A stretch of 64,000 bases of DNA from an uncultured delta proteobacterium (GTDB taxonomy: Bacteria > Myxococcota_A > Polyangia > Polyangiales > Polyangiaceae): the NCBI GenBank assembly GCA_963841435.1, contig CAWJCS010000005.1:1056001-1120000 (forward strand), written 5' to 3'. Below the pieces are notes generated by a model. The model made no database searches, had not been told where the DNA came from, and worked only from the letters and a program-made list of their open reading frames with translations. Below are positions 1,030 to 22,203 of this stretch, one piece after another; the stretch's first letter is position 1; each line of letters begins with the position of its first letter. The position numbers were made by a program, and so were the translations under genes.

Positions 1030-2776
1030 GTGAACGTCGCGAGCCTACTCGCCGAGCGCGTGCGAAAGGCCATCGTCAACGCGTTCGGCCCGGAGCACGC
1101 GGGCGCCGAACCCGCCGTGCACCGCTCGAGCTTCGCGGATTTCCAGGCCGATGCTGCGCTACGCCTCGCCAAGCCGCTCAAGAAGCCTCCGCTCGAGATC
1201 GCCAAGGCCATCGCCGGCGCGCTCGACGTTTCCGACCTCGTCGCCGAGGGGGGCGTCACCGTCACGCCGCCCGGCTTCGTGAACTTCGTGCTCGGTCGCC
1301 CTTTCCTCGAGGGCTCGCTCGCGCACGTGGCCGCCGGCGAGCGCGCGGGCGTCGGGCGCCTCGAGCAGGGGGAGGTCGTCGTCATCGACTACTCGGGGCC
1401 GAACATGGCCAAGGAGATGCACGTCGGCCACATCCGGAGCACCATCATCGGCGACGCGCTCGCGCGCGTGCTCGACTTCCTCGGGCATCGCGTGATTCGC
1501 CAGAACCACGTGGGAGACTGGGGCACGCCGTTCGGGATGCTCATCGAGCACCTCACGGACGTGGGAGCCGACACCGCGGCGCGCGAGCTCGGCCTCGGCG
1601 CGCTCAACGATTTTTACCAGGCAGCGCGCAAGAAGTTCGACTCCGATCCGGCATTCGCCGATCGCGCGCGGCGGCGCGTGGTCCTCCTGCAGAGCGGCGA
1701 TGCGCCGACGCTCGAGCACTGGCGCGTTCTCGTCGACGCCTCGCGCCGCTACTTCGACGGCGTCTACCGACGGCTGGGCGTGCTGCTCGTCAACGCCGAC
1801 GTGCGGGGCGAGAGCTTCTACAATCCCATGCTGCCCGAGATCGCGCGCGATCTCACGGAGCGCGGCATCGCGCGGGTCGAACGACGGCGCGCTGTGCGTG
1901 TTCATGGAAGAATTTCGGGGGCGCGACGACACGCCGCTGCCGCTCATCGTGCAGAAGAAGGACGGCGGATTCGGCTACGCCGCGACCGATCTCGCCGGGC
2001 TGCGTTTTCGCACCAAAGACCTCGGCGCCACACGCTTGCTCTACGTGATCGGCTCCCCGCAGGAACAGCACCTTTCGATGTGCTTCGCCGCCGCGCGCCG
2101 CGCGGGCTACCTGCCGGAGAGCGCGCGCGCCGAGCACGTACGTTTTGGTTCGATTCTCGGCAGCGACAAGAAGATGTTCCGCACGCGCGAGGGCGAAACC
2201 GTGCGCCTCGCCGCGTTGCTCGACGAGGCCGTCGCACGCGCGACGAGCGCCATCGCCGCGAAGAATCCGGATTTGCCCGTCGATCAGGTGGCGTCCGTGG
2301 CGGCCATGGTCGGCATCGGTGCGCTCAAGTACGCCGACCTCTCGAGCGACCGCACCAAGGACTACGTGTTCGACTGGGATCGCATGCTGGCGTTCGAGGG
2401 CAACACGGGGCCGTACCTGCAGTACGCCCATGCGCGGATCTGCTCCATCGAGCGGCGCGCGGCCGACGCCGGTATCACGCTCGAAGCGTCGCAGCCGTTC
2501 TCGCTTGCCGCCGAGGCGGAGCAGAAGCTCGCCGTCGAGCTGTTGGAGCTCGAGCCCACGCTGCTTTCGGTCGCCGACACGCTGCACCCGCATCGCCTTG
2601 CCGGGTACCTCTTCTCGCTGGCGACGGCGTTCACGACGTTCTACGAAAACTGCCCCGTGCTCCGTGCCGAAAGGCCCGAAGAAAAGCGCTCGCGCCTCGC
2701 GCTCTGCCAGGCGTCGCGGCAAGTCCTCGGCCAGGGGCTGCACCTGCTCGGCATGGAAGCCCCCGAGCGCATGTGA
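1030..2776 (+). CDS. argS: arginine--tRNA ligase, one +1 frameshift near 1880 (probable sequencing indel)
   Basis: DYSGPNMAKEMHVGHIRSTIIGD and NHVGDWGTPFGMLIE lie in the 1030 frame; PLIVQKKDGGFGYAATDLA, FEGNTGPYLQYAHAR and C-terminal ERM lie in the 1700..2776 frame. Confidence 0.92.
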
Positions 2777-2778
2777 CG

Positions 2779-3957
2779 ATGGAACCCGTGACGCTCGACG
2801 CGCTGTCGGCACGGGAGCACGAGCTTTCGGACGAAGAACGGCTGGTCCAAGGCAGCGTGCGGCGCTTCGTGCGCGAGCGCTACCTGCCGCGTGCAGCCGA
2901 GCTCTTCGAGCACGAAACGTTTCCGCGCGACCTCGTGCCGGAGCTCGCCGAGCTCGGCCTGCTCGGGGCGAGCATCAGCGGGTACGGCTGCGCCGGCATG
3001 GGGCCCGTGGCGTACGGCCTCGTGCTCGAGGAGCTCGAATACGGCGACAGCGCGCTCCGGAGCTTCGTGAGCGTGCAGGGCTCGCTCGCGATGAACGCCA
3101 TCGCGTTCTTCGGCACCCCCGACCAGAAAAAGCGCTACCTCCCCGCGATGGCGAGCGGCACGCTCGTCGGCTGCTTCGGCCTCACGGAGCCCGACAGCGG
3201 CTCCGACCCGGCGTCGATGCAGACGCGCGCGCGGCGCGACGGCGCGGGCTGGGTGCTCGACGGCACGAAGATGTGGATCACCAACGCGCCCATTGCCGAC
3301 CTTGCCGTGGTCTGGGCGAAGGTCGACGGCGGCGAGAGCGAGAGCGTGCGCGGTTTTTTGGTGGAGCGCGGCGATCCGGGCTTCGAGACGCCGCGCATCG
3401 CCGGCAAGCTGAGCCTTCGTGCCAGCGAAACCGGCGAAATCGTGCTCTCCGACTGTCGGTTGCCAGGCGAGCGCGCCCTCGAGCACAAGCCGGGCCTGGG
3501 CGCGGCGCTTCGCTGCCTCAACGAGGCCCGCTACGGCATCGCGTGGGGCGCGGTCGGCGCGGCCAAAGCCTGCTTCGAATGCGCCCGCGACTACGCGCGC
3601 GAGCGCCGGCAGTTCGACGGCCCCATCGCGAAAAAACAGCTCGTGCAAAAGGAGCTGGCCGACATGGCGACCGAGATCGTGAAGGCCGAGCTTCTCGCCC
3701 ACGCGTACGGCAGGCAAAAGCAAGCGACGGGTCACCTGTCACCCGAGCAAGTCTCGCTCGCCAAGCGCAACAACGTGGCCATGGCTCTCGACGTAGCGCG
3801 TAAGGCGCGCGCCCTGCTCGGCGCGAACGGGATCCTCCTCGACTACCCCGTCATGCGGCACCTCTTGAACCTCGAAAGCGTCTTCACCTACGAGGGCACG
3901 CACGAGATCCACACCCTCGTGCTCGGCAAGGCCCTCACCGGCGAGAGCGCGTTCTGA
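2779..3957 (+). CDS. acyl-CoA dehydrogenase, glutaryl-CoA dehydrogenase-like
   Basis: GCFGLTEPDSGSDP, GTKMWITN, KLSLRASETG, NLESVFTYEGTHEIHTL; start is GTG 2773 or ATG 2779, next to the argS stop. Confidence 0.88.
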   Translation: MEPVTLDALSAREHELSDEERLVQGSVRRFVRERYLPRAAELFEHETFPRDLVPELAELGLLGASISGYGCAGMGPVAYGLVLEELEYGDSALRSFVSVQGSLAMNAIAFFGTPDQKKRYLPAMASGTLVGCFGLTEPDSGSDPASMQTRARRDGAGWVLDGTKMWITNAPIADLAVVWAKVDGGESESVRGFLVERGDPGFETPRIAGKLSLRASETGEIVLSDCRLPGERALEHKPGLGAALRCLNEARYGIAWGAVGAAKACFECARDYARERRQFDGPIAKKQLVQKELADMATEIVKAELLAHAYGRQKQATGHLSPEQVSLAKRNNVAMALDVARKARALLGANGILLDYPVMRHLLNLESVFTYEGTHEIHTLVLGKALTGESAF

Positions 3958-9029: not shown

Positions 9030-10226
9030 TCAGAAGAGCTGGCCCGCAACCAAATAGAGGCCCACGGGGTGGGCGTCGGGCGACCAGGCGGCGTCAGCGC
9101 GTAAGACGAAGGAGTCGCCGGCGTGCCAGCGCGGCCCGCCACCGATACCGTATTTGAGCCCGAGGCCGTGACCGTCGAACGCGGGATTCTTCTTGTAGTC
9201 GAGCCACAGCCGGCCCGCGTCGAAGAAGCCCGTGAGGCCGAGGACGTTGTCCTTGCTGAAAGCGTGAAACCGAAAGAGCTCCGTCCGAAGCTCGAGGTTG
9301 CCGAAGAGCTTTGCCTTGCCGTAGTAGCGCTCGGCCGGCACGCCGCGAACGCCCTTCACGCCACCGATGGCGTAGGTATCGTCGTAGTGCGAAAGCTCGT
9401 AAAATGGCGGATCCCCGAACAGACCATCCGCGATGATCCGCACGGCGAGCGTGACGCGCCGTTCGAGCGGCACGTAGCCCCGAAGCGCCAGGTTCACGCG
9501 CGCGAAGCGATAGGGAAAGCCGTCCCAGCCGCCGGGCGACAGCTCGACGCGCAGGATGTGGTACTGCCCCGAGTGCGCGGACACCTCGTGATCGCGGCTG
9601 TCGAAGCCGACGCCATAGAAGGTCGTTGCGACGCCGTGTCGCTCACTCGGGTGCAGGTAGCGGCGTACCTCGGGCGACCCATGGTACATGTCGTCGTACA
9701 GCACGCTGCCTGGGCGGATCGTCATCCAGTTGTAGGATGCCCATAGGCCCCACGTGAGAAGCACCTGCTCGCTCGCGTGATAGCGACCCTGGAAGTCGAG
9801 CCGCGGGTGGGTCCAGCCGTATTCGTAGCGCTCGGCGATCGGATTCGTGCCAGCGGGGATTTCGGAAGCGTTGCCGAGACCGTAGTACGTGAGGTTCTGT
9901 TCTCGTGAGAAGTCGGCGACGAAGCGAACGCCGAAGCGTCCCTTGATGACGTGCGGGAATTCGATCACGACGTAGTCGTTGGCATACGGCACCTCGAAGT
10001 CCCCGTGCCCCGACTTGAAGGTGATCGATCCGGCGTTCTCGACGCGAAACACGTACGGCTCGTACCCCTCCACGACGCGCGCGAGGGACATGAGATAGCC
10101 GCCACCGAAACCGATGTCGCTCGTACCACCCACCGCGGGGACGATCGTGAGCTCGTTTCGTGGCTCGGCGGCGAGCGCGCTCGGTGCCAAGCTGGCGCAC
10201 AAGAAGAACCAGCGGAGCGACTTCAG
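9030..10226 (-). CDS. Omp85 (BamA/TamA)-family outer-membrane beta-barrel
   Basis: GGVKGVRG..ERYYG, NLELR, FFDAGRLW, terminal GQLF; CTG 10226 gives a signal peptide (first canonical start is TTG 10202). Confidence 0.8.
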   Translation of the reverse strand: MKSLRWFFLCASLAPSALAAEPRNELTIVPAVGGTSDIGFGGGYLMSLARVVEGYEPYVFRVENAGSITFKSGHGDFEVPYANDYVVIEFPHVIKGRFGVRFVADFSREQNLTYYGLGNASEIPAGTNPIAERYEYGWTHPRLDFQGRYHASEQVLLTWGLWASYNWMTIRPGSVLYDDMYHGSPEVRRYLHPSERHGVATTFYGVGFDSRDHEVSAHSGQYHILRVELSPGGWDGFPYRFARVNLALRGYVPLERRVTLAVRIIADGLFGDPPFYELSHYDDTYAIGGVKGVRGVPAERYYGKAKLFGNLELRTELFRFHAFSKDNVLGLTGFFDAGRLWLDYKKNPAFDGHGLGLKYGIGGGPRWHAGDSFVLRADAAWSPDAHPVGLYLVAGQLF

Positions 10227-12077
10227 AGCGAGACCCCCGAAAGCCAGCGATCGCTCACGAATGGCGTCACGTCGGTCAACCCGTTCGCGAGGGCGATTCC
10301 GACGTTGGCCATCTCCGAGGACAGGAGGAATGCCCCCCGGGGCGGGTGGGGCGCGAGCTCGACGTACCCCTTTGCTTCGAGGCGTCCGCTGCGCGCCTCG
10401 GGTACCTCGAGGCGTTGCTCGTCTTCGACGCGGCGCAACCGGACGCGCCCGTCGAGCGCACCGAGGCCCAGCGCCTCACCCGCGAGGGCCCGCAGCCACT
10501 TGGGGCCAATGAATAGGGAAAGCGCCGCATCGGCGTTCTCCGCGTGCAGGCGCATGTCCCCTGCCGCGCGGAATGGCCCCTTGGTCCACACGCGAAGCAT
10601 TTCGCTCAGCAAGGTAGCCGAGAATCCGGCCGTGCGCGCGTTTCCTGCGTCCAAAATGACCGATCCGAGCTCGATCCGCGGATGCTCGAAGATGAGCTCG
10701 TCGGGCACCGCCCCTGCTCTGCGCACCCGACTCGAGAGTTTGCCGCTCGCCGCCAGCGAGAACGAGGGGCGCGCGTAGCTCACGCCCTCGAGCGTCGCCG
10801 CCAGCGAGCCCCAGACCGACCCGTTCGCAGCCCGCGTGAGCTCGAGGCGGGCGCAAGCCGCACCGGCGAGACGACCGCCCGCGACGCTGGGCTCGGGCGT
10901 GAGCCATCCGAGCTCCGGGGCGCAAAGCCGGTGGAGCATCAAGGCGGCCGCGCCGAGTACCCTTTCGCGAGTGAGATTCTGCGGGGCCGACGCCCAAGAG
11001 AACGGCGATCGCCTCCACGAACGGCGGGTCCCCCGCGCGGTCTCGTGCTGACGCGGCCGTGAGCCGCGCGGCGCTCGAGCGGAGCTCGACCACGTCGGGG
11101 TCGTTCGACGGGACGACGAGCGACGCCTCCAACGAGCCGCCGACGCCCAGGCCCGCAGCGCCCGCCCGCACGCCGCGCGCGTGGAGCTCGACGTGCGACC
11201 CGGGACTGAGGACGCCGCGCTCGAGCGCGAGGTCGAACGCGAAGCTCGCGTCGCCCAGCAGCGACGCACCGAGCGCGGGCACGAGATACGCGTCGGCCGC
11301 TTCGAGACGCCCGCCGTCGAGCCTCCCGCGCACGCCGCCACTCACGTTGCGGAGCACCGCGAGACCGTCGAACTTGCGGATGTCGTGGTCCGCTACCCCG
11401 CAATCAATCGTGAGCTTGGTCTCGGCGGCGACCACGACGTTGCCGAGCGAAAGACGCCCCGGCCCGAGCTCGAGGCGAGCGGCGTCGACGCGGAGACGAC
11501 GAGCGGGCTCGAGGCGAAAGCCGCCCGTCGCCGTTCCGGCGCCGCGATACCGATACTCGAGAAGCCAGAGCTCCTGCAGGTGGGCCACAACGTCGTCGAG
11601 CTCGACCTGCCAGAGCGCGTACTCGGAGTCGGGGACCGGAGCAGGAGGGGGCCCCTCATACAGAGGCGGGTCGGAGAAGCCCGGAATACGCGGGAACGCC
11701 GCGAGCCGACGCTCGTTGCCCGCCACGGCGTGAACCTTGTGACGCATGCGAAAGCGCGTCCCGTCGGCTCGCACGGTGAGGGCGTGAAAGCGCCTCGACA
11801 CGAGCTCGTGAAGCGACACGTCGAGCTCACCGTGCGCGACCGCGACCTCGACTTGTACGTTGTAATCCTGGATGCGAACCACCAGGTTCTCGACCACGAC
11901 GCGACCCGGCCAGAGGCTATGCGCCGAGTCGAAGGTCACTTCCACGTCGCCGGACGAGCTCGCCAGACGCTGCACGATGCCAGTGCCGAGAATGGTGTTC
12001 ACGACCGCGAGGTACGCGAGCGTGAGCGAGGCGAGCACGAACACCAGTCGAATCGCGACCTTTTGCGCGAACTGCAC
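10223..12077 (-). CDS. membrane-anchored beta-rich hypothetical protein (AsmA/TamB-like), frameshift near 10985
   Basis: N-terminal TM (IRLVFVLASLTLAYLAVVN) then beta-strand-rich sequence; the coding frame switches at a C run; stop overlaps the Omp85 gene start. Confidence 0.6.
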
Positions 12078-17810: not shown

Positions 17811-19004
17811 GTGCGGATCTTCGGTCTGCGGGACCTGCTCGAGCGCGCTCGGCAGCTGGGTCGGCGAGCGGGAACCTTCGGTTTCATCGCAGCGGTCGTC
17901 ACGCTGTACGTCGCGAGCGCAGCGCTTCGGACTCGGAGCTACGGCGACCACGTCTCGGCGCTCGTCGGCTTCGGCTGCTCGCCCGAGAACTGCTACGCCG
18001 CGCAGAACGAAGCCAGCCTGCCGCGCCGCGCGGTGGTGTTCCGCACCGGCGGCTACGACGGACAGTTCTTCTACTATCTCGGCCGCGAGCTCTTCGGCGG
18101 GCCACGAGCATCGGTCGATTCCGACCCATTCCGGCGCGCTCGCATCGGCCTGCCGCTGCTCGCCGGTCCGCTACTCGCCGCGGGCGACCTCGGACGCGTG
18201 CTGGGTTTGCCCATCACGCTCCTGCTCCTTCACCTCGCGTCGGTGTGGGGGCTCGCTCGATCGCCCGCGCCACGCCTGCTCGTCGCGACGTTCGCGCTGA
18301 ACCCCTTCTCGCTGCTCTGCTTCCTGCATTCGGTCGCCGACGGCGCGGCGCTCTCGCTCGCCGTGCTCGCTGCGCTGGCCGCGCAGGCCCGGAGCCCTTG
18401 GCGCCACGCAGGGCTTCTTCTGCTCGCGCTCTCGATGCTGACCAAGGAAGCGATGCTGCTCGTTGCCGTGGCGCTCGGCGCCCGGGCGCTACTCGACGGG
18501 GCCGCCTCGCCGCGCGCCCGTGCCGTACGCGTCGCCGGCTACGCGGCGAGCCTCGTGCCCATGCTCGTGTGGTGGCAGCGAGTGGGCTTTTCGCCGGGGC
18601 TCGCCGCGCGGCACGGCGGCTTCCCCTTCTTGGGCCTTGCCACCTACGCCCCCCACGCGAAGTTGCAACAGGTCGTGCTGATCGTCGTGCTCGTGCTTGC
18701 CGCCGGTACGGGCCTGAGCGCGCTCAAGGACGCTCGCACCCGGCCACCCGCCCTCCTCGTGCTCGGCACTCTCGCGCTGGTTTCGGCCGCCACGGCAGGC
18801 GAATACTGGGCAACGTTCGCGAACGTCGCCCGGCTCTTCACGCCCCTCGTCGCCGCGCCGGCGCTGCTCGAAGAGGCTCCGGTCTCTCCCGCCATCCGCC
18901 GCTGGGTGCTCGCACTCTGTAGCTCCCTGCTGCTGCTCACGTCGATCCTCCTCGTGCGCGAAGCGACGGTCCCGCCGCTGCCGTACTTCGTCATGGGCGG
19001 GTAG
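17811..19004 (+). CDS. multi-pass GT-C-like membrane protein (AZOBR_p60025-like cell-surface glycopolymer family)
   Basis: GYDGQFFYY...RRARIGLPLLA, LTKE motif, about ten hydrophobic segments. Confidence 0.65.
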   Translation: MRIFGLRDLLERARQLGRRAGTFGFIAAVVTLYVASAALRTRSYGDHVSALVGFGCSPENCYAAQNEASLPRRAVVFRTGGYDGQFFYYLGRELFGGPRASVDSDPFRRARIGLPLLAGPLLAAGDLGRVLGLPITLLLLHLASVWGLARSPAPRLLVATFALNPFSLLCFLHSVADGAALSLAVLAALAAQARSPWRHAGLLLLALSMLTKEAMLLVAVALGARALLDGAASPRARAVRVAGYAASLVPMLVWWQRVGFSPGLAARHGGFPFLGLATYAPHAKLQQVVLIVVLVLAAGTGLSALKDARTRPPALLVLGTLALVSAATAGEYWATFANVARLFTPLVAAPALLEEAPVSPAIRRWVLALCSSLLLLTSILLVREATVPPLPYFVMGG

Positions 19005-19143
19005 ACCGCCGCGGGTCGGGAGCCCGCTGCCCCCGGTGGGCGGGTTGCTCGAAAACGGACGCAACTTCGCCGTGCCCCGCCCGACCTTGCATCTCGACCA
19101 CGCGAAGCGGCCTCGCCGCTCGCACTAGCGAAGGGACCAGCAC

Positions 19144-19860
19144 ATGACACAAAGTGTGGGATCGAGCGCAGTCACCGCCGGCGGCTACGAGTATGGCTTC
19201 GACGCGACCGCCGAAGGACCGGCCGGCTACATCAGCGACGACGAGCTGACGCTCTGGATGCAGGAAAAATCCACCGAACAATACGACCGCGTGCGGAGCA
19301 TGATGGAGATGTTGACCACGCGGGGCAAGCTCATGCGCGATCTCGCGCACGTGCAAGCGGCCCTCGATAAAGTGGGTGACGATCCGCAGGCGGCGCTCGA
19401 TGCCGTCAACGCAATCCAGACGGCCTACGCGGACACCGAATACGCCAAGGAGCTCGAGTCGACCCTCGCTCCCATTCACGATCAGCTGACCGTCTACGTC
19501 GCGATGGAACAGACGCTCGACGCGTACTTCGCCGGACGGCCGACTGAAGGAGGCGGGCCGGTGGGCGACGAGCTGGAGGCCATGTTCGCGGCTGTCACGG
19601 GGGACACGGTCAACCTCGAAGACCCGATGGACATGACACGGAAGAAGAGCGCGCTCCAGACGAGCATCCAGTCGAGCTGGAGGGTCGCCTCGGGCGAGGT
19701 CAAGGCGATGCTCGACTCGCTCGGTCGCGATGACCAGCTCGCTCTCACCGAGATCCAGGGCGCCATGGCCGATGCCCGGGAAACGGCCCAGCTCGCTTCG
19801 AACATCATGTCGAGCGAGCACCAGGCGCTCCAGGCGATCGTCGGCAACATTCGCGCGTGA
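19144..19860 (+). CDS. T3SS tip/filament-like protein (SctA; EspA/SseB/LcrV-like C-terminal helix)
   Basis: Helical, hydrophilic, no signal peptide; ends DQLALTEIQGAMADARETAQLASNIMSSEHQALQAIVGNIRA; GAAGGGA RBS. Confidence 0.6.
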   Translation: MTQSVGSSAVTAGGYEYGFDATAEGPAGYISDDELTLWMQEKSTEQYDRVRSMMEMLTTRGKLMRDLAHVQAALDKVGDDPQAALDAVNAIQTAYADTEYAKELESTLAPIHDQLTVYVAMEQTLDAYFAGRPTEGGGPVGDELEAMFAAVTGDTVNLEDPMDMTRKKSALQTSIQSSWRVASGEVKAMLDSLGRDDQLALTEIQGAMADARETAQLASNIMSSEHQALQAIVGNIRA

Positions 19861-19864
19861 GATC

Positions 19865-20662
19865 ATGAGCCCCGTCGCAAGCGCACCCATGGAACCGGAG
19901 CAGGGCGCCGCGCCCCAGTTCGGCATCGGTCCCACCGCGGACGCCCTGCCGAACGACCTCTCTTCGGCACTGCTCGCCCTGGTCATGCAGAGCCGCACGA
20001 GCTTGAACGAAGCCGCTCGCTCCGAGGTCGAGCACGCCCAGGATCTGATGGAGTGGGCCAAACACCAGATCGAAGCCGCCATGGAGCGCGCCCGGGAAGC
20101 CGAGAAGCACGCAGGCTTCTTCGGCTCCTTGAGCGACGTGCTCGGGGTCGACATCGCGACCGTCGCGAGCGTCGTGGCGAGCGCCGCCATCATCGTCGGG
20201 ACGGGGGGCGCGGGCGCGCCGGCCGTCATCGCCCTCGCTGCCACGGGTCTCTCGGTGGCCAGTGAGGTCGGCGAGCGGCTCGGCCTCGATCCGAAGGTCT
20301 GCGCGTTGCTGGCGGCGGGCGGCGCGGTCGCGGGGGTCGCAACGGGTAACCTCGCGGCCCCGGCCGGCGTCTGCGGTAGCGTCGCGACGACGGCCAACGT
20401 CGTCCGGGCGGGCGCCACGGCCGCAGGCGGCGCCGCTCACGCCGTCGAAGGGCAGTACCAGGCCGATGCGCTCGATGCCCGAGCGGAAGCGCAGGCCGGA
20501 AAGAACACCGACCGGAGCGCCGAGCAGCGCTTCGACAGCGCCATCGAGACACTCGAGAAGGTCGCGCGCGACCTCGAGCGAGCGCGGAGCACGACCTCGG
20601 CCATCGAGCGCATCCGGAGCGAGACGGCAATGTCCGTCATTGCCGCGATAGGAGGAGCATGA
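19865..20662 (+). CDS. T3SS major translocator-like protein (SctE; SseC/YopB/EspD-like)
   Basis: Coiled coil ending AREAEKHAGFFGSL, then hydrophobic hairpin IATVASVVASAAIIVGTGGAGAPAVIALAA, second hydrophobic segment, C-terminal coiled coil. Confidence 0.68.
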   Translation: MSPVASAPMEPEQGAAPQFGIGPTADALPNDLSSALLALVMQSRTSLNEAARSEVEHAQDLMEWAKHQIEAAMERAREAEKHAGFFGSLSDVLGVDIATVASVVASAAIIVGTGGAGAPAVIALAATGLSVASEVGERLGLDPKVCALLAAGGAVAGVATGNLAAPAGVCGSVATTANVVRAGATAAGGAAHAVEGQYQADALDARAEAQAGKNTDRSAEQRFDSAIETLEKVARDLERARSTTSAIERIRSETAMSVIAAIGGA

Positions 20663-21204
20663 TGAGCGACATCCAAGTCACGTCGAGCGATCCGTTGATC
20701 CAGCTCGCCGCGTTGATGATCGAGAACGATTCGGTCCAGGACGAGGCCAATCAGCAAGCGCTCGATGCCGCGCGGCGCGCCGAGGAGCGCGCCGGCGCCG
20801 AACAGGTCGCGGCGCTCCGCGACGCCGCGTCGGCCGTTGCCACGGGGGCGCTCGTGGAAGGTGGCCTTCGGGTCGTCGGCGGCGTCACTTCGGGCATCGC
20901 CATCGGAGAAGGTGGCACGAGCGAGACGGGCCCCGCGGACATGAAGGTGCTCGCGCGCTCGGGCGACGCCGTGACGAGCCTGGGCGCCCCGCTCGGAGCG
21001 CTCACGGGTGAAGCGCCCAAGCTCCGCGCCCAGGCGGAAGCCACGCGCGCCGAGCACGCGGCGAACCTCGCCTCGAACGACATCGAGACGGCGCGCGAGC
21101 GACTTTCGCACGGTGATCACCACGCGAGCGCGGTGCTCGATCTGCTGGAGAAGTGCCTCGAGACCGAAGCACAGGGCACCGCCGCCGTTCTCGGCAACTT
21201 TTGA
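20659..21204 (+). CDS. T3SS minor translocator-like protein (SctB; SseD/YopD/EspB-like)
   Basis: Coiled coil, one Gly/Ala-rich hydrophobic segment, amphipathic C-terminus ending AAVLGNF; ATGA overlap and GGAGGA RBS. Confidence 0.58.
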   Translation: MMSDIQVTSSDPLIQLAALMIENDSVQDEANQQALDAARRAEERAGAEQVAALRDAASAVATGALVEGGLRVVGGVTSGIAIGEGGTSETGPADMKVLARSGDAVTSLGAPLGALTGEAPKLRAQAEATRAEHAANLASNDIETARERLSHGDHHASAVLDLLEKCLETEAQGTAAVLGNF

Positions 21205-21297
21205 AGGATTTTGCAGCCGGGCGAGCCGCGGCGGTAAGATGGATGTTCGGGGTGAGCGGCGCCGCTGGGCGCGCCCGCGGGCAACGTGTCGCGCCGC

Positions 21298-22203
21298 TTA
21301 CGAGAAACGCCGCGCCGCGACCTCGTCGAGCCACTCGACGTTCTCGTCGCGCAGCCAGGTGCGCTGGCGCCGCGCGAAGACGCGCGTCGCGCGCCGGATC
21401 GAATCGCCGAGCGCGGGCTCGTCGAGCGAAGCGCCCGACTTGATCGCGGCGAGAATTTGCCGGTAGCCGACCGAGCCCATCGCGCGGGCGTGCTCGTAGC
21501 CGCGGGCGCAGAGCGCGCGCACCTCGTCGATCCAGCCGGCTGCCAGCATCGCGTGCACGCGCGTCTCGATGCGCCGGTCGAGCTCGGCGGGCTCGCGCCG
21601 CAAACCGACGAGGCGCACTTCGTAGCGCGGGGTCCGAAAGCCGTGACCTTCGTGGAAGTGAGCGAGCGGCGTGCCCGTGAGCTCGAAGACCTCGAGCGCC
21701 CGGCTCACGCGCACGAAGTCGTTCGGAGCAAGCTTCCCGGCCCCCTCCGGGTCGACGCGGGCAAGCATGGCGTGGAGGGCCGAGCGCCCCTCGGAGTCCG
21801 CGAGCGCGCGGTGCCGCTCGCGCAGCGCGGCGTCACCGGGCGGCGCCGGTGCAAGCCCGTAGAGCAACGCCCGCACCCACAGGAACGACCCGCCGCACAC
21901 GATCGGCTCGCGCCCGCGCTCGAGCACCTCGGCGACGGCGCGCGACGCGAGCTCGGCCCAGCGCGCGGCGTCGATGGGCTCCATCGGGTCCAAAAGGTCG
22001 ACCAGGTGATGGGCGGCGCGCGCTCTCTCCGCGGCGGTCGGCTTGCCCGTGCCGACATCGAAGTGCCGGTACACCTGCACGCTGTCGGCGCCGATGATCT
22101 CCCCGCGGCGCCGCTCCGCGAGCTCCAGGGCAAGCTCGGTCTTCCCGGAAGCCGTGGGCCCGACCACGACGACGAGCGGCGGCAGGCCCGCTTCCTCCGT
22201 CAC
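21298..22203 (-). CDS. miaA: tRNA dimethylallyltransferase
   Basis: VVGPTASGKT, ADSVQVYR..DVGTGKP, RVSRALEV, FARRQRTW. Confidence 0.95.
   Translation of the reverse strand: MTEEAGLPPLVVVVGPTASGKTELALELAERRRGEIIGADSVQVYRHFDVGTGKPTAAERARAAHHLVDLLDPMEPIDAARWAELASRAVAEVLERGREPIVCGGSFLWVRALLYGLAPAPPGDAALRERHRALADSEGRSALHAMLARVDPEGAGKLAPNDFVRVSRALEVFELTGTPLAHFHEGHGFRTPRYEVRLVGLRREPAELDRRIETRVHAMLAAGWIDEVRALCARGYEHARAMGSVGYRQILAAIKSGASLDEPALGDSIRRATRVFARRQRTWLRDENVEWLDEVAARRFS

Follow-up and report, generated by a model that had tools for sequence, protein, structure and literature searches.

On the plasmid of Yersinia enterocolitica the tip and translocon genes for a type III secretion system (T3SS) are arranged as lcrG-lcrV-lcrH-yopB-yopD, and the operons pcrGVH-popBD and acrGVH-aopBD are of the same kind. 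In the LEE4 operon of Escherichia coli O157 the order is espA-espD-espB, with no chaperone gene between the first and second genes. The present analysis concerns three adjacent genes (genes 1, 2 and 3; 19144-21204, plus strand) in a stretch of 64,000 nucleotides, hereafter the window (C5:1056001-1120000), from the genome of an uncultured member of the Polyangiaceae, a host that contrasts with the known pathogen Yersinia. The three genes have the same order as those of LEE4, and in many related genomes their homologues belong to a five-gene operon that has the same order as the operon of Yersinia. The triad is probably the tip and translocon module of a non-flagellar T3SS that is almost confined to the order Polyangiales among the sampled genomes, that has no chaperone gene in the window and that is served by core genes scattered over the chromosome.

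From the same phylum the needle-less T3SS* of Myxococcus xanthus (the Myxo family) has been described, a non-flagellar system which, in the relevant parts of two sources, likewise has no dedicated secretin (PMC3459982, PMC10849154). In the pages that Abby and Rocha (2012) devote to the Myxo family, these systems are without secretin, SctF, LcrV and YopB/YopD and occur in the Cystobacterineae only; they are placed basal to the non-flagellar systems, with the translocon perhaps arising later than the secretin, and it is granted that tip and translocon proteins evolve fast and that homologues could have been missed (PMC3459982). A 2024 review, in what it says of Myxococcus, also describes a system without needle or translocon homologues (PMC10849154). 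Whereas the T3SS* of M. xanthus is reportedly without needle, tip and translocon and lies in one or two loci, the genome considered here carries a tip/translocon operon and core genes that are scattered singly. Copies of sctV and sctR in Polyangia appear in the pertinent part of a 2024 paper (PMC11509652), the portion of a 2026 preprint that treats the T3SS has it mainly restricted to the class Myxococcia (10.64898/2026.07.10.737566), and in the comparison given in PMC11821767 bins were compared with M. xanthus genes only. In the open-access literature searched, no paper was found that joins Myxococcota, T3SS and translocator, a search on myxobacteria, YopB and T3SS found only Abby and Rocha, and neither the triad operon nor the scattered machine was found described.

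The triad and its five-gene counterpart

Gene 1 (19144..19860, plus strand; 238 aa) is given by the list of open reading frames (ORFs), and its product has the C-terminal end TEIQGAMADARETAQLASNIMSSEHQALQAIVGNIRA. Gene 2 (19865..20662, plus strand; 265 aa) begins at an in-frame ATG at 19865 inside a longer ORF (19730-20662), and from this start its N-terminus lines up with those of 11 homologues. Gene 3 (20659..21204, plus strand; 181 aa) is again an entry of the ORF list. The stop codon of gene 1 ends at 19860, leaving a gap of 4 nt before gene 2, and the TGA of gene 2 (20660-20662) overlaps the ATG of gene 3 at 20659 as ATGA, with AGGAGG preceding gene 3. Coordinates and sequence therefore bear out the tight coupling described in an earlier account of this DNA that was made from the letters alone (the sequence-only reading), and inspection of hydropathy reveals no hydrophobic N-terminus in any of the three products, in keeping with its statement that none has a signal peptide. 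Because homologues exist and co-occur in the same order in all 18 related loci, the three genes are genuine and not chance ORFs.

The comparison behind this count took in 17 related loci that contain gene 2, together with the window. A homologue of gene 1 lies upstream of gene 2, and a homologue of gene 3 downstream, in 18 of 18 loci, and a survey of synteny, which the sequence-only reading had proposed as a check, thus found the three genes together throughout. The profile of the gene 3 family was built from 10 of the gene 3 sequences at these loci plus one metagenome homologue, and the other eight score against it at E 1e-34 to 5e-8. In 10 of the 18 loci genes 1 and 2 are separated by a TPR gene of 86-157 codons, which in many cases has an ATGA overlap, and in the other eight there is none; a small ORF of 64-88 codons stands ahead of gene 1 in nine of the 18.

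TIGR02552 (LcrH_SycD) is the best NCBIfam match of all eight TPR proteins tested (E 1.3e-10 to 1.5e-18); they score 41-67 bits along most of the model's 136 positions, which is below the equivalog cut-off of 104.8. A tblastn search of 72,556 plasmids with one of these proteins returned 47 records; among the 30 rows listed, 24 are annotated as SycD, LcrH or AcrH chaperones (Yersinia, Aeromonas, Rhizobium, Bradyrhizobium), and the remaining six comprise two from Yersinia enterocolitica without a listed feature and others with unrelated or uninformative annotations. Homology of the relatives' chaperone to LcrH/SycD is well supported by these matches. The small upstream ORF was also considered as an LcrG-like gene, for which the match is too weak (hhalign E 0.0067, probability 5.7%, 22 columns).

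The triad in the window is a chaperone-less form of this five-gene operon (small ORF, gene 1, LcrH-like TPR gene, gene 2, gene 3), which is common in the order, and is not the stand-alone oddity that the sequence-only reading had taken it for. The likeness in gene order to espA-espD-espB and, once the chaperone gene is included, to lcrV-yopB-yopD agrees with the arrangements in E. coli O157 and Yersinia enterocolitica, and the chaperone of the relatives resembles that of the Yersinia operon, being LcrH-type by both NCBIfam and tblastn. In contrast to Yersinia, the lineage of the window has neither the small ORF nor the chaperone, the operon lies outside any T3SS cluster, and the three proteins measure 238, 265 and 181 aa as against 326, 400 and 305 aa.

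Among the genomes sampled, the gene 2 family is almost confined to Polyangiales. With its profile (A3, built from 21 sequences), members were found in 69 out of 201 genomes from the order, distributed over 49 of 94 genera, the order-wide tallies including one genome flagged as unpublished (G123). Across a sample of 301 genomes of the phylum the same profile matched 22, of which 19 belong to the window's order, the source genome being one of them; outside the order there are three weak matches, all within ORFs longer than 1000 aa. Three cultured Sorangium genomes have no gene 2 match. The SctV family, for its part, is present in 168 of the 201 genomes of the order, including all 14 that were matched by the first gene 2 profile.

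The three-gene form adjoins the block rplU-rpmA-HAD-mutL-miaA in the window, in a relative of the same genus (L027) and in syntenic Polyangiaceae (L052, L054, L055 and L063), the block being inverted in the window. With only 4 nt between genes 1 and 2, a class II chaperone gene is absent from the operon in the window; its absence nearby had been noted from the letters, and none is detectable elsewhere in the genome either. An LLPxP motif near residue 30 of gene 2, which resembles the binding motif for class II chaperones, occurs in five of nine operons with the chaperone and in none of seven without it. The five carriers are probably close kin, and an association between motif and chaperone is only a lead. 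Between the window and its syntenic relatives the triad proteins are 29-35% identical, as against 71% for MutL, 63% for MiaA and 86-93% for L27. Such divergence while the gene order persists fits the rapid evolution of tip and translocon proteins noted in the corresponding passage of Abby and Rocha (PMC3459982).

A lineage that has lost both the chaperone and the small ORF, and whose gene 2 shares the lack of the LLPxP motif with the other chaperone-less operons, could also be taken to hold a decaying or functionless remnant of a complete tip-translocon operon, kept by chance while the T3SS fulfils other roles. The gene 2 of one relative (L036), which is split over two frames (9766-10293 and 10269-10646), would be of a piece with decay, a frameshift or an error of the draft assembly being possible there. 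However, all three frames are open in the window and in the chaperone-less L027, L052, L054, L055 and L063, gene 3 has retained a strong ribosome-binding site and its translational coupling, and the persistence of order and coupling at identities as low as 29-35% fits selection on function and not decay. A remnant appears decidedly improbable, and the triad is treated below as a tip and translocon module.

Homology of the three proteins

Gene 2 has the architecture of SctE proteins, in which two hydrophobic helices in the middle come after an N-terminal coiled coil. More specifically, EAEKHAGFFG is followed by a hydrophobic stretch at residues 85-131 that is split by TGGAGAP (maximum Kyte-Doolittle hydropathy, KD, 2.16), and another such stretch lies at 139-173. 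Only 11 word-sharing homologues were found among 5.8 billion proteins, three of them with a precomputed label of the Pfam SseC family (PF04888), and PF04888 is matched by seven of 12 aligned members of the gene 2 family (E<=0.1), at best with 3.4e-9. The window protein itself gives E 9.5e-5 with this model, a sub-threshold score. In the relative G168 the gene 2 product matches NF011901 (SipB/IpaB type) at E 1.2e-10 across the hydrophobic region. Profile alignment by hhalign places gene 2 on EspD 145-180 (E 0.0011) and on YopB 127-178 (E 0.029), in both cases on the coiled coil just ahead of the first hydrophobic helix, as expected, the placements being weak. The AlphaFold2 (AF2) model of gene 2 is also weak (predicted local confidence, pLDDT, 66; predicted template-modelling score, pTM, 0.36), with helices at 32-112 and 118-138; its VIA-align matches are generic long coiled coils, with the N-terminal domain of IpaB tied among them (Z 11.4), and deserve little weight given the model. 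A predicted complex of gene 2 with gene 3 reached a median of 0.27, under the mark of 0.32, and a search of genome contigs with the gene 2 alignment gave 284 pattern matches, 0 of them confirmed. Taken at the level of the family, the sequence matches offer good support for gene 2 as a member of a diverged SseC/SctE-type family.

Gene 3 shows the architecture of SctB proteins: its single hydrophobic segment, at 64-83, is weak (KD 1.34), and the tail at the C-terminus is helical. The family alignment shows a conserved C-terminal third. Weak matches to SctB or SseD models (NF038055 or NF052420) were obtained for six of nine relatives (E 7e-4 to 0.044), and by hhalign the family aligns with YopD 85-139 (E 0.0065). 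In the ESM Atlas gene 3 has among its neighbours two clusters with SctB2, the EspB/SseD type, in 21% and 18% of their members (scores 0.96 and 0.95) and one with YopD in 79% (0.90), at a recognition value of 2355, above the stated mark. Homology of gene 3 to the SctB type is, from these comparisons, moderately supported. Since the profile of gene 2 picks up gene 3 as well (window 20380-21201), with E 9e-6 when the genome was searched and 5e-7 in the locus set that includes the relatives, genes 2 and 3 may be distant paralogues.

Gene 1 is hydrophilic, with no hydrophobic segment (maximum KD 0.56), so that hydropathy agrees with the features first described for all three genes, namely a hydrophilic gene 1, EAEKHAGFFG and a TGGAGA-centred hairpin in gene 2 and a single segment in gene 3. 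Its family is large and has no name; a profile (A2, built from 16 sequences) brought up 3495 cluster representatives with E<=0.001, of which 1362 reach E<=1e-10, mostly end to end and mostly in proteins of ~190-250 aa (range 157 to 299). Just one Pfam family recurs among its members, that of the T3SS needle (PF09392), and each time the match lies at the extreme C-terminus; it is matched by four of the 16 members (best 7.3e-4) and by seven of 148 representatives (1.3e-6 in the best case, with 28.9 bits against a cut-off of 29.4). The C-terminal ~55 residues of the family align to positions ~9-71 of the PF09392 model, and hhalign places the C-terminus of gene 1 on EscF 32-64 (E 0.031).

SctF needle proteins have ~70-90 residues. 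Gene 1 shares with them this C-terminal alignment to PF09392 and to EscF 32-64; it differs in having three times their length, ~180 residues being an N-terminal extension that takes it outside the SctF size range, and in scoring just under the curated cut-off. The profiles of LcrV (PF04792), IpaD/SipD and EspA (PF03433) matched neither the window protein nor any of the 16 members (E<=5) or 148 representatives (E<=0.01). Gene 1 thus differs from Yersinia LcrV in having a needle-like C-terminus and no similarity to it, and from LEE4 EspA in having no detectable sequence similarity and no PF03433 match. EspA is a filament former that polymerises through its C-terminal coiled coil, and by analogy a behaviour of this sort is proposed for gene 1. 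In contrast to the window, the LEE encodes a separate needle, EscF, inside a complete T3SS island.

In the AF2 model of gene 1 (pLDDT 73.7) residues 32-75 and 161-237 form long helices, and its top VIA-align matches are an FlgL-like hook-associated protein (Z 10.5), FliD (10.2) and FlgL (9.7), followed by flagellins (9.6), a hook-filament junction protein (9.4) and the inner rod protein of Shigella (8.3); the enrichment of axial proteins among these model-based matches is suggestive only. The ESM Atlas neighbours of gene 1 include clusters with 12% EspA or LcrV members, at a recognition value of 2143, below the mark. Gene 1 lies directly upstream of the translocator genes in 18 of 18 loci. It is read as an axial-family protein with a needle-like C-terminus that stands at the operon position of the tip protein, and is a candidate tip, filament or long needle subunit; its homology to T3SS parts appears supported for the C-terminal part only. 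The earlier assignment of the triad as SctA-SctE-SctB accordingly holds in order and features, in the PF04888 matches of gene 2 and in the SctB/SseD signals of gene 3, while SctA, for want of any LcrV, IpaD or EspA profile match, is not shown for gene 1.

Two observations touch on this family. The same-genus relative L027 has two tandem copies of gene 1 (L027:1689-2396 and 2619-3509) that are 75% identical over 202 residues. Elsewhere in the source genome a 153-aa ORF (C1:230425-230886, minus strand; also L149:4428-4886), with a GC content at third codon positions (GC3) of 0.93, matches the C-terminal profile of gene 1 with its C-terminus at E 0.004 and the full profile at E 0.0013. It adjoins a gene for an M23 peptidase and an ORF of 110 codons, has no match in Pfam or NCBIfam, and could be a needle or inner-rod protein.

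A dispersed core machine

The sequence-only reading regarded the triad as an orphan with no injectisome nearby. The source genome (7.78 Mb in six contigs, 95% complete) contradicts the orphan status: it holds one intact copy each of sctV, sctU, sctR, sctS, sctT, sctN, sctJ and sctQ, that is, the core genes of an injectisome. These lie at eight separate loci, each gene solitary and far from the window. Contig C6 carries sctV (C6:1570330-1572315), sctU (C6:1049936-1050913), sctS (C6:1518708-1518923) and sctJ (C6:1805923-1806762), C3 carries sctR (C3:1004384-1005220) and sctN (C3:1078366-1079646), sctT is on C4 (C4:379196-379834) and sctQ on C5 (C5:1555685-1555888). Around sctV, sctU, sctR, sctN and sctJ the neighbours with a Pfam match are housekeeping genes and none belongs to a T3SS; several neighbours matched nothing.

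The core genes appear to be of non-flagellar type. NCBIfam favours the non-flagellar families for SctV, SctU, SctR and SctJ, as in SctV (659 bits vs 539 for FlhA) and SctJ (127 vs 30 for FliF), and SctR is above its NCBIfam cut-off. SctN is a near tie that does not discriminate (558 bits vs 548 for FliI), and sctS, sctT and sctQ were found by Pfam models that are common to flagella. Of the genes for which the sequence-only reading had suggested a genome search, sctN, sctR, sctS, sctT, sctU and sctV were thus recovered, and sctF (by PF09392) and a SycD-like chaperone were not. The scatter of the core genes seems to be conserved, because sctJ lies 250-700 kb from sctV in two relatives with few contigs. 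For comparison, the T3SS of Chlamydia, as treated by Abby and Rocha, occupies four loci and is less scattered than the one described here (PMC3459982).

Elsewhere in the order, the relative G168 (L137:9013-14764) has a minus-strand sctV followed by an Omp85-family gene, a small ORF, gene 1 and gene 2. Its sctV, which scores above the TIGR01399 cut-off, is 1.5 kb from the operon, and this is the only locus seen in which the operon touches a core T3SS gene. A genome of the window's genus contains a second export cluster of flagellar appearance (L139; G196:C94:4000-17434) with MotA, MotB, FlhF, FlhA, FliR, FliQ, FliP and FliO as read by eye, and high-scoring matches to PF00771 of flagellar type are found in many genomes of the order, the source genome not among them.

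A working scheme can be inferred from these parts, from secretion by the scattered apparatus to polymerisation, pore formation and the kind of target. The three products, which have no apparent signal peptide, would be exported by the dispersed SctRSTUV together with SctN, SctQ and SctJ. Gene 1 would polymerise, or cap a polymer, through its needle-like C-terminal helix as a tip, filament or long needle subunit, gene 2 would act as the major translocator of SctE type with its hydrophobic hairpin, and gene 3 as the minor translocator of SctB type with its one hydrophobic segment. On contact, the products of genes 2 and 3 would insert in the membrane of the target cell and form a pore beneath the structure built by gene 1. 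Put more broadly, Polyangiales may possess a previously unrecognised non-flagellar T3SS with a needle-like tip and a two-protein translocon, with eight core genes scattered singly and no dedicated secretin; this wider proposal is tentative and falls a little short of an even chance.

Weighing the alternatives

Several results weigh against a translocon module of a T3SS. As regards the single proteins, gene 1 of the window has no family match in Pfam or NCBIfam, hhalign finds no similarity of gene 1 to LcrV or EspA, and searches of PDB sequences with profiles A1 and A2 gave no T3SS protein, what they returned, at E above 0.01, being syntaxin, myosin light chain and further coiled coils. Window gene 2 matches PF04888 over residues 36-135 at E 9.5e-5 and 22.6 bits, which is below the cut-off of 30.2, and a direct PF04888 search of the source genome gave nothing at E<=1; window gene 3 reaches NF038055 (SctB) at E 0.96 and has no Pfam match at E<=1. 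The hhalign comparisons, made against single reference sequences, carry low probabilities (0.1-20%). In structure, Foldseek found no match of the gene 1 model in the PDB at E<=0.001, with BAR domains, ClyA and designed bundles at the top of its list, and the VIA-align Z scores (<=10.5 for gene 1, <=12.2 for gene 2) are within the range that is common for helical proteins with this tool. As regards the genome, searches with TIGR02552 and tblastn found only generic TPR proteins (<=33.4 bits), a hidden Markov model (HMM) built from the chaperones of nine relatives retrieved nothing but large TPR proteins, the best secretin match to TIGR02516 (SctC) was 119.6 bits against a cut-off of 238, and a search for the needle family PF09392 gave nothing at E<=1. 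A working injectisome is therefore not demonstrated, because no class II chaperone, SctC-level secretin or PF09392 match appears at 95% completeness. A search of sequencing-run records for the triad listed no run and no RNA dataset.

The alanine content of gene 2 (23%) and gene 3 (20%), single-sequence scores that are mostly below threshold and structural matches that are generically helical would suit unrelated helical or alanine-rich proteins whose likeness to T3SS components is an artefact of coiled coils and low complexity. Such an artefact would not be expected to place SseC and SipB-type matches on the hydrophobic region instead of the coiled coil, to confine needle-family matches to the C-terminus of gene 1, to give gene 3 SctB2 and YopD clusters as Atlas neighbours, or to put an LcrH-type chaperone in exactly the expected position in relatives. 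This explanation is highly improbable. As for the alternative families that the sequence-only reading had named, WXG100 and phage tail proteins, neither came up when the three families were scanned with Pfam and NCBIfam (PHROGs and PADLOC not being covered).

Another suggestion is that the triad descends from a T3SS translocon and now works independently of any T3SS, as a stand-alone contact-dependent or secreted pore module; gene 1 would be its scaffold, and the products of genes 2 and 3, exported by another route, would enter target membranes or those of the producer. The loss of chaperone and small ORF in the lineage of the window, the missing TPR gene in 8 of 18 loci, the want of a chaperone orthologue, of a secretin above the SctC cut-off and of a PF09392 match in the genome, and the position of the triad among housekeeping genes are all compatible with it. 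On the other side, each of the eight core T3SS genes looked for exists as one open frame whose matching part is free of stop codons, and no hydrophobic N-terminus is available to serve another export route. SctV was also found in all 14 genomes of the first gene 2 profile, which is a weak point given that 168 of the 201 genomes in the order have SctV. An independent pore module seems unlikely, and a tip and translocon module served by the scattered T3SS core remains the favoured interpretation of the triad.

Genomic setting

The nearest relatives of the MutL encoded in the window are from public genomes titled Polyangiaceae, and the earlier description of the host as a predatory myxobacterium is upheld to this extent, in its statement of lineage. 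The triad is preceded by a leader (19005..19143, plus strand), an intergenic gap of 139 nt with AAGGGA ~10 nt before the ATG of gene 1, which is likely the promoter region of the operon; a consensus scan of 18800-21500 found no sigma-70-like site. Downstream of the triad, on the minus strand, are miaA, mutL, a HAD hydrolase gene, rpmA and rplU. Upstream, the ORF at 17811-19004 (plus strand) encodes a membrane protein of the multi-pass kind, which matches NF046093 (AZOBR_p60025 surface glycopolymer formation) below threshold (119.7 bits, cut-off 150), and this neighbour is not shared by the relatives examined.

Significance

If the interpretation is correct, myxobacteria would possess a contact-dependent injection system that bears a translocon, as opposed to the needle-less and translocon-less picture drawn so far. 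A translocon could then go together with a T3SS that has no secretin to itself, a point relevant to the sequence of events proposed for the evolution of injectisomes, and gene 1 would be the founding member of a new class of long needle or tip proteins, of which metagenomes contain thousands. An operon like lcrGVH-yopBD in about one third of the sampled Polyangiales, together with a core machine split into single genes, would change the published picture. The questions that this raises are which cells soil myxobacteria inject, how a scattered T3SS is co-regulated and how translocators may function without a class II chaperone.

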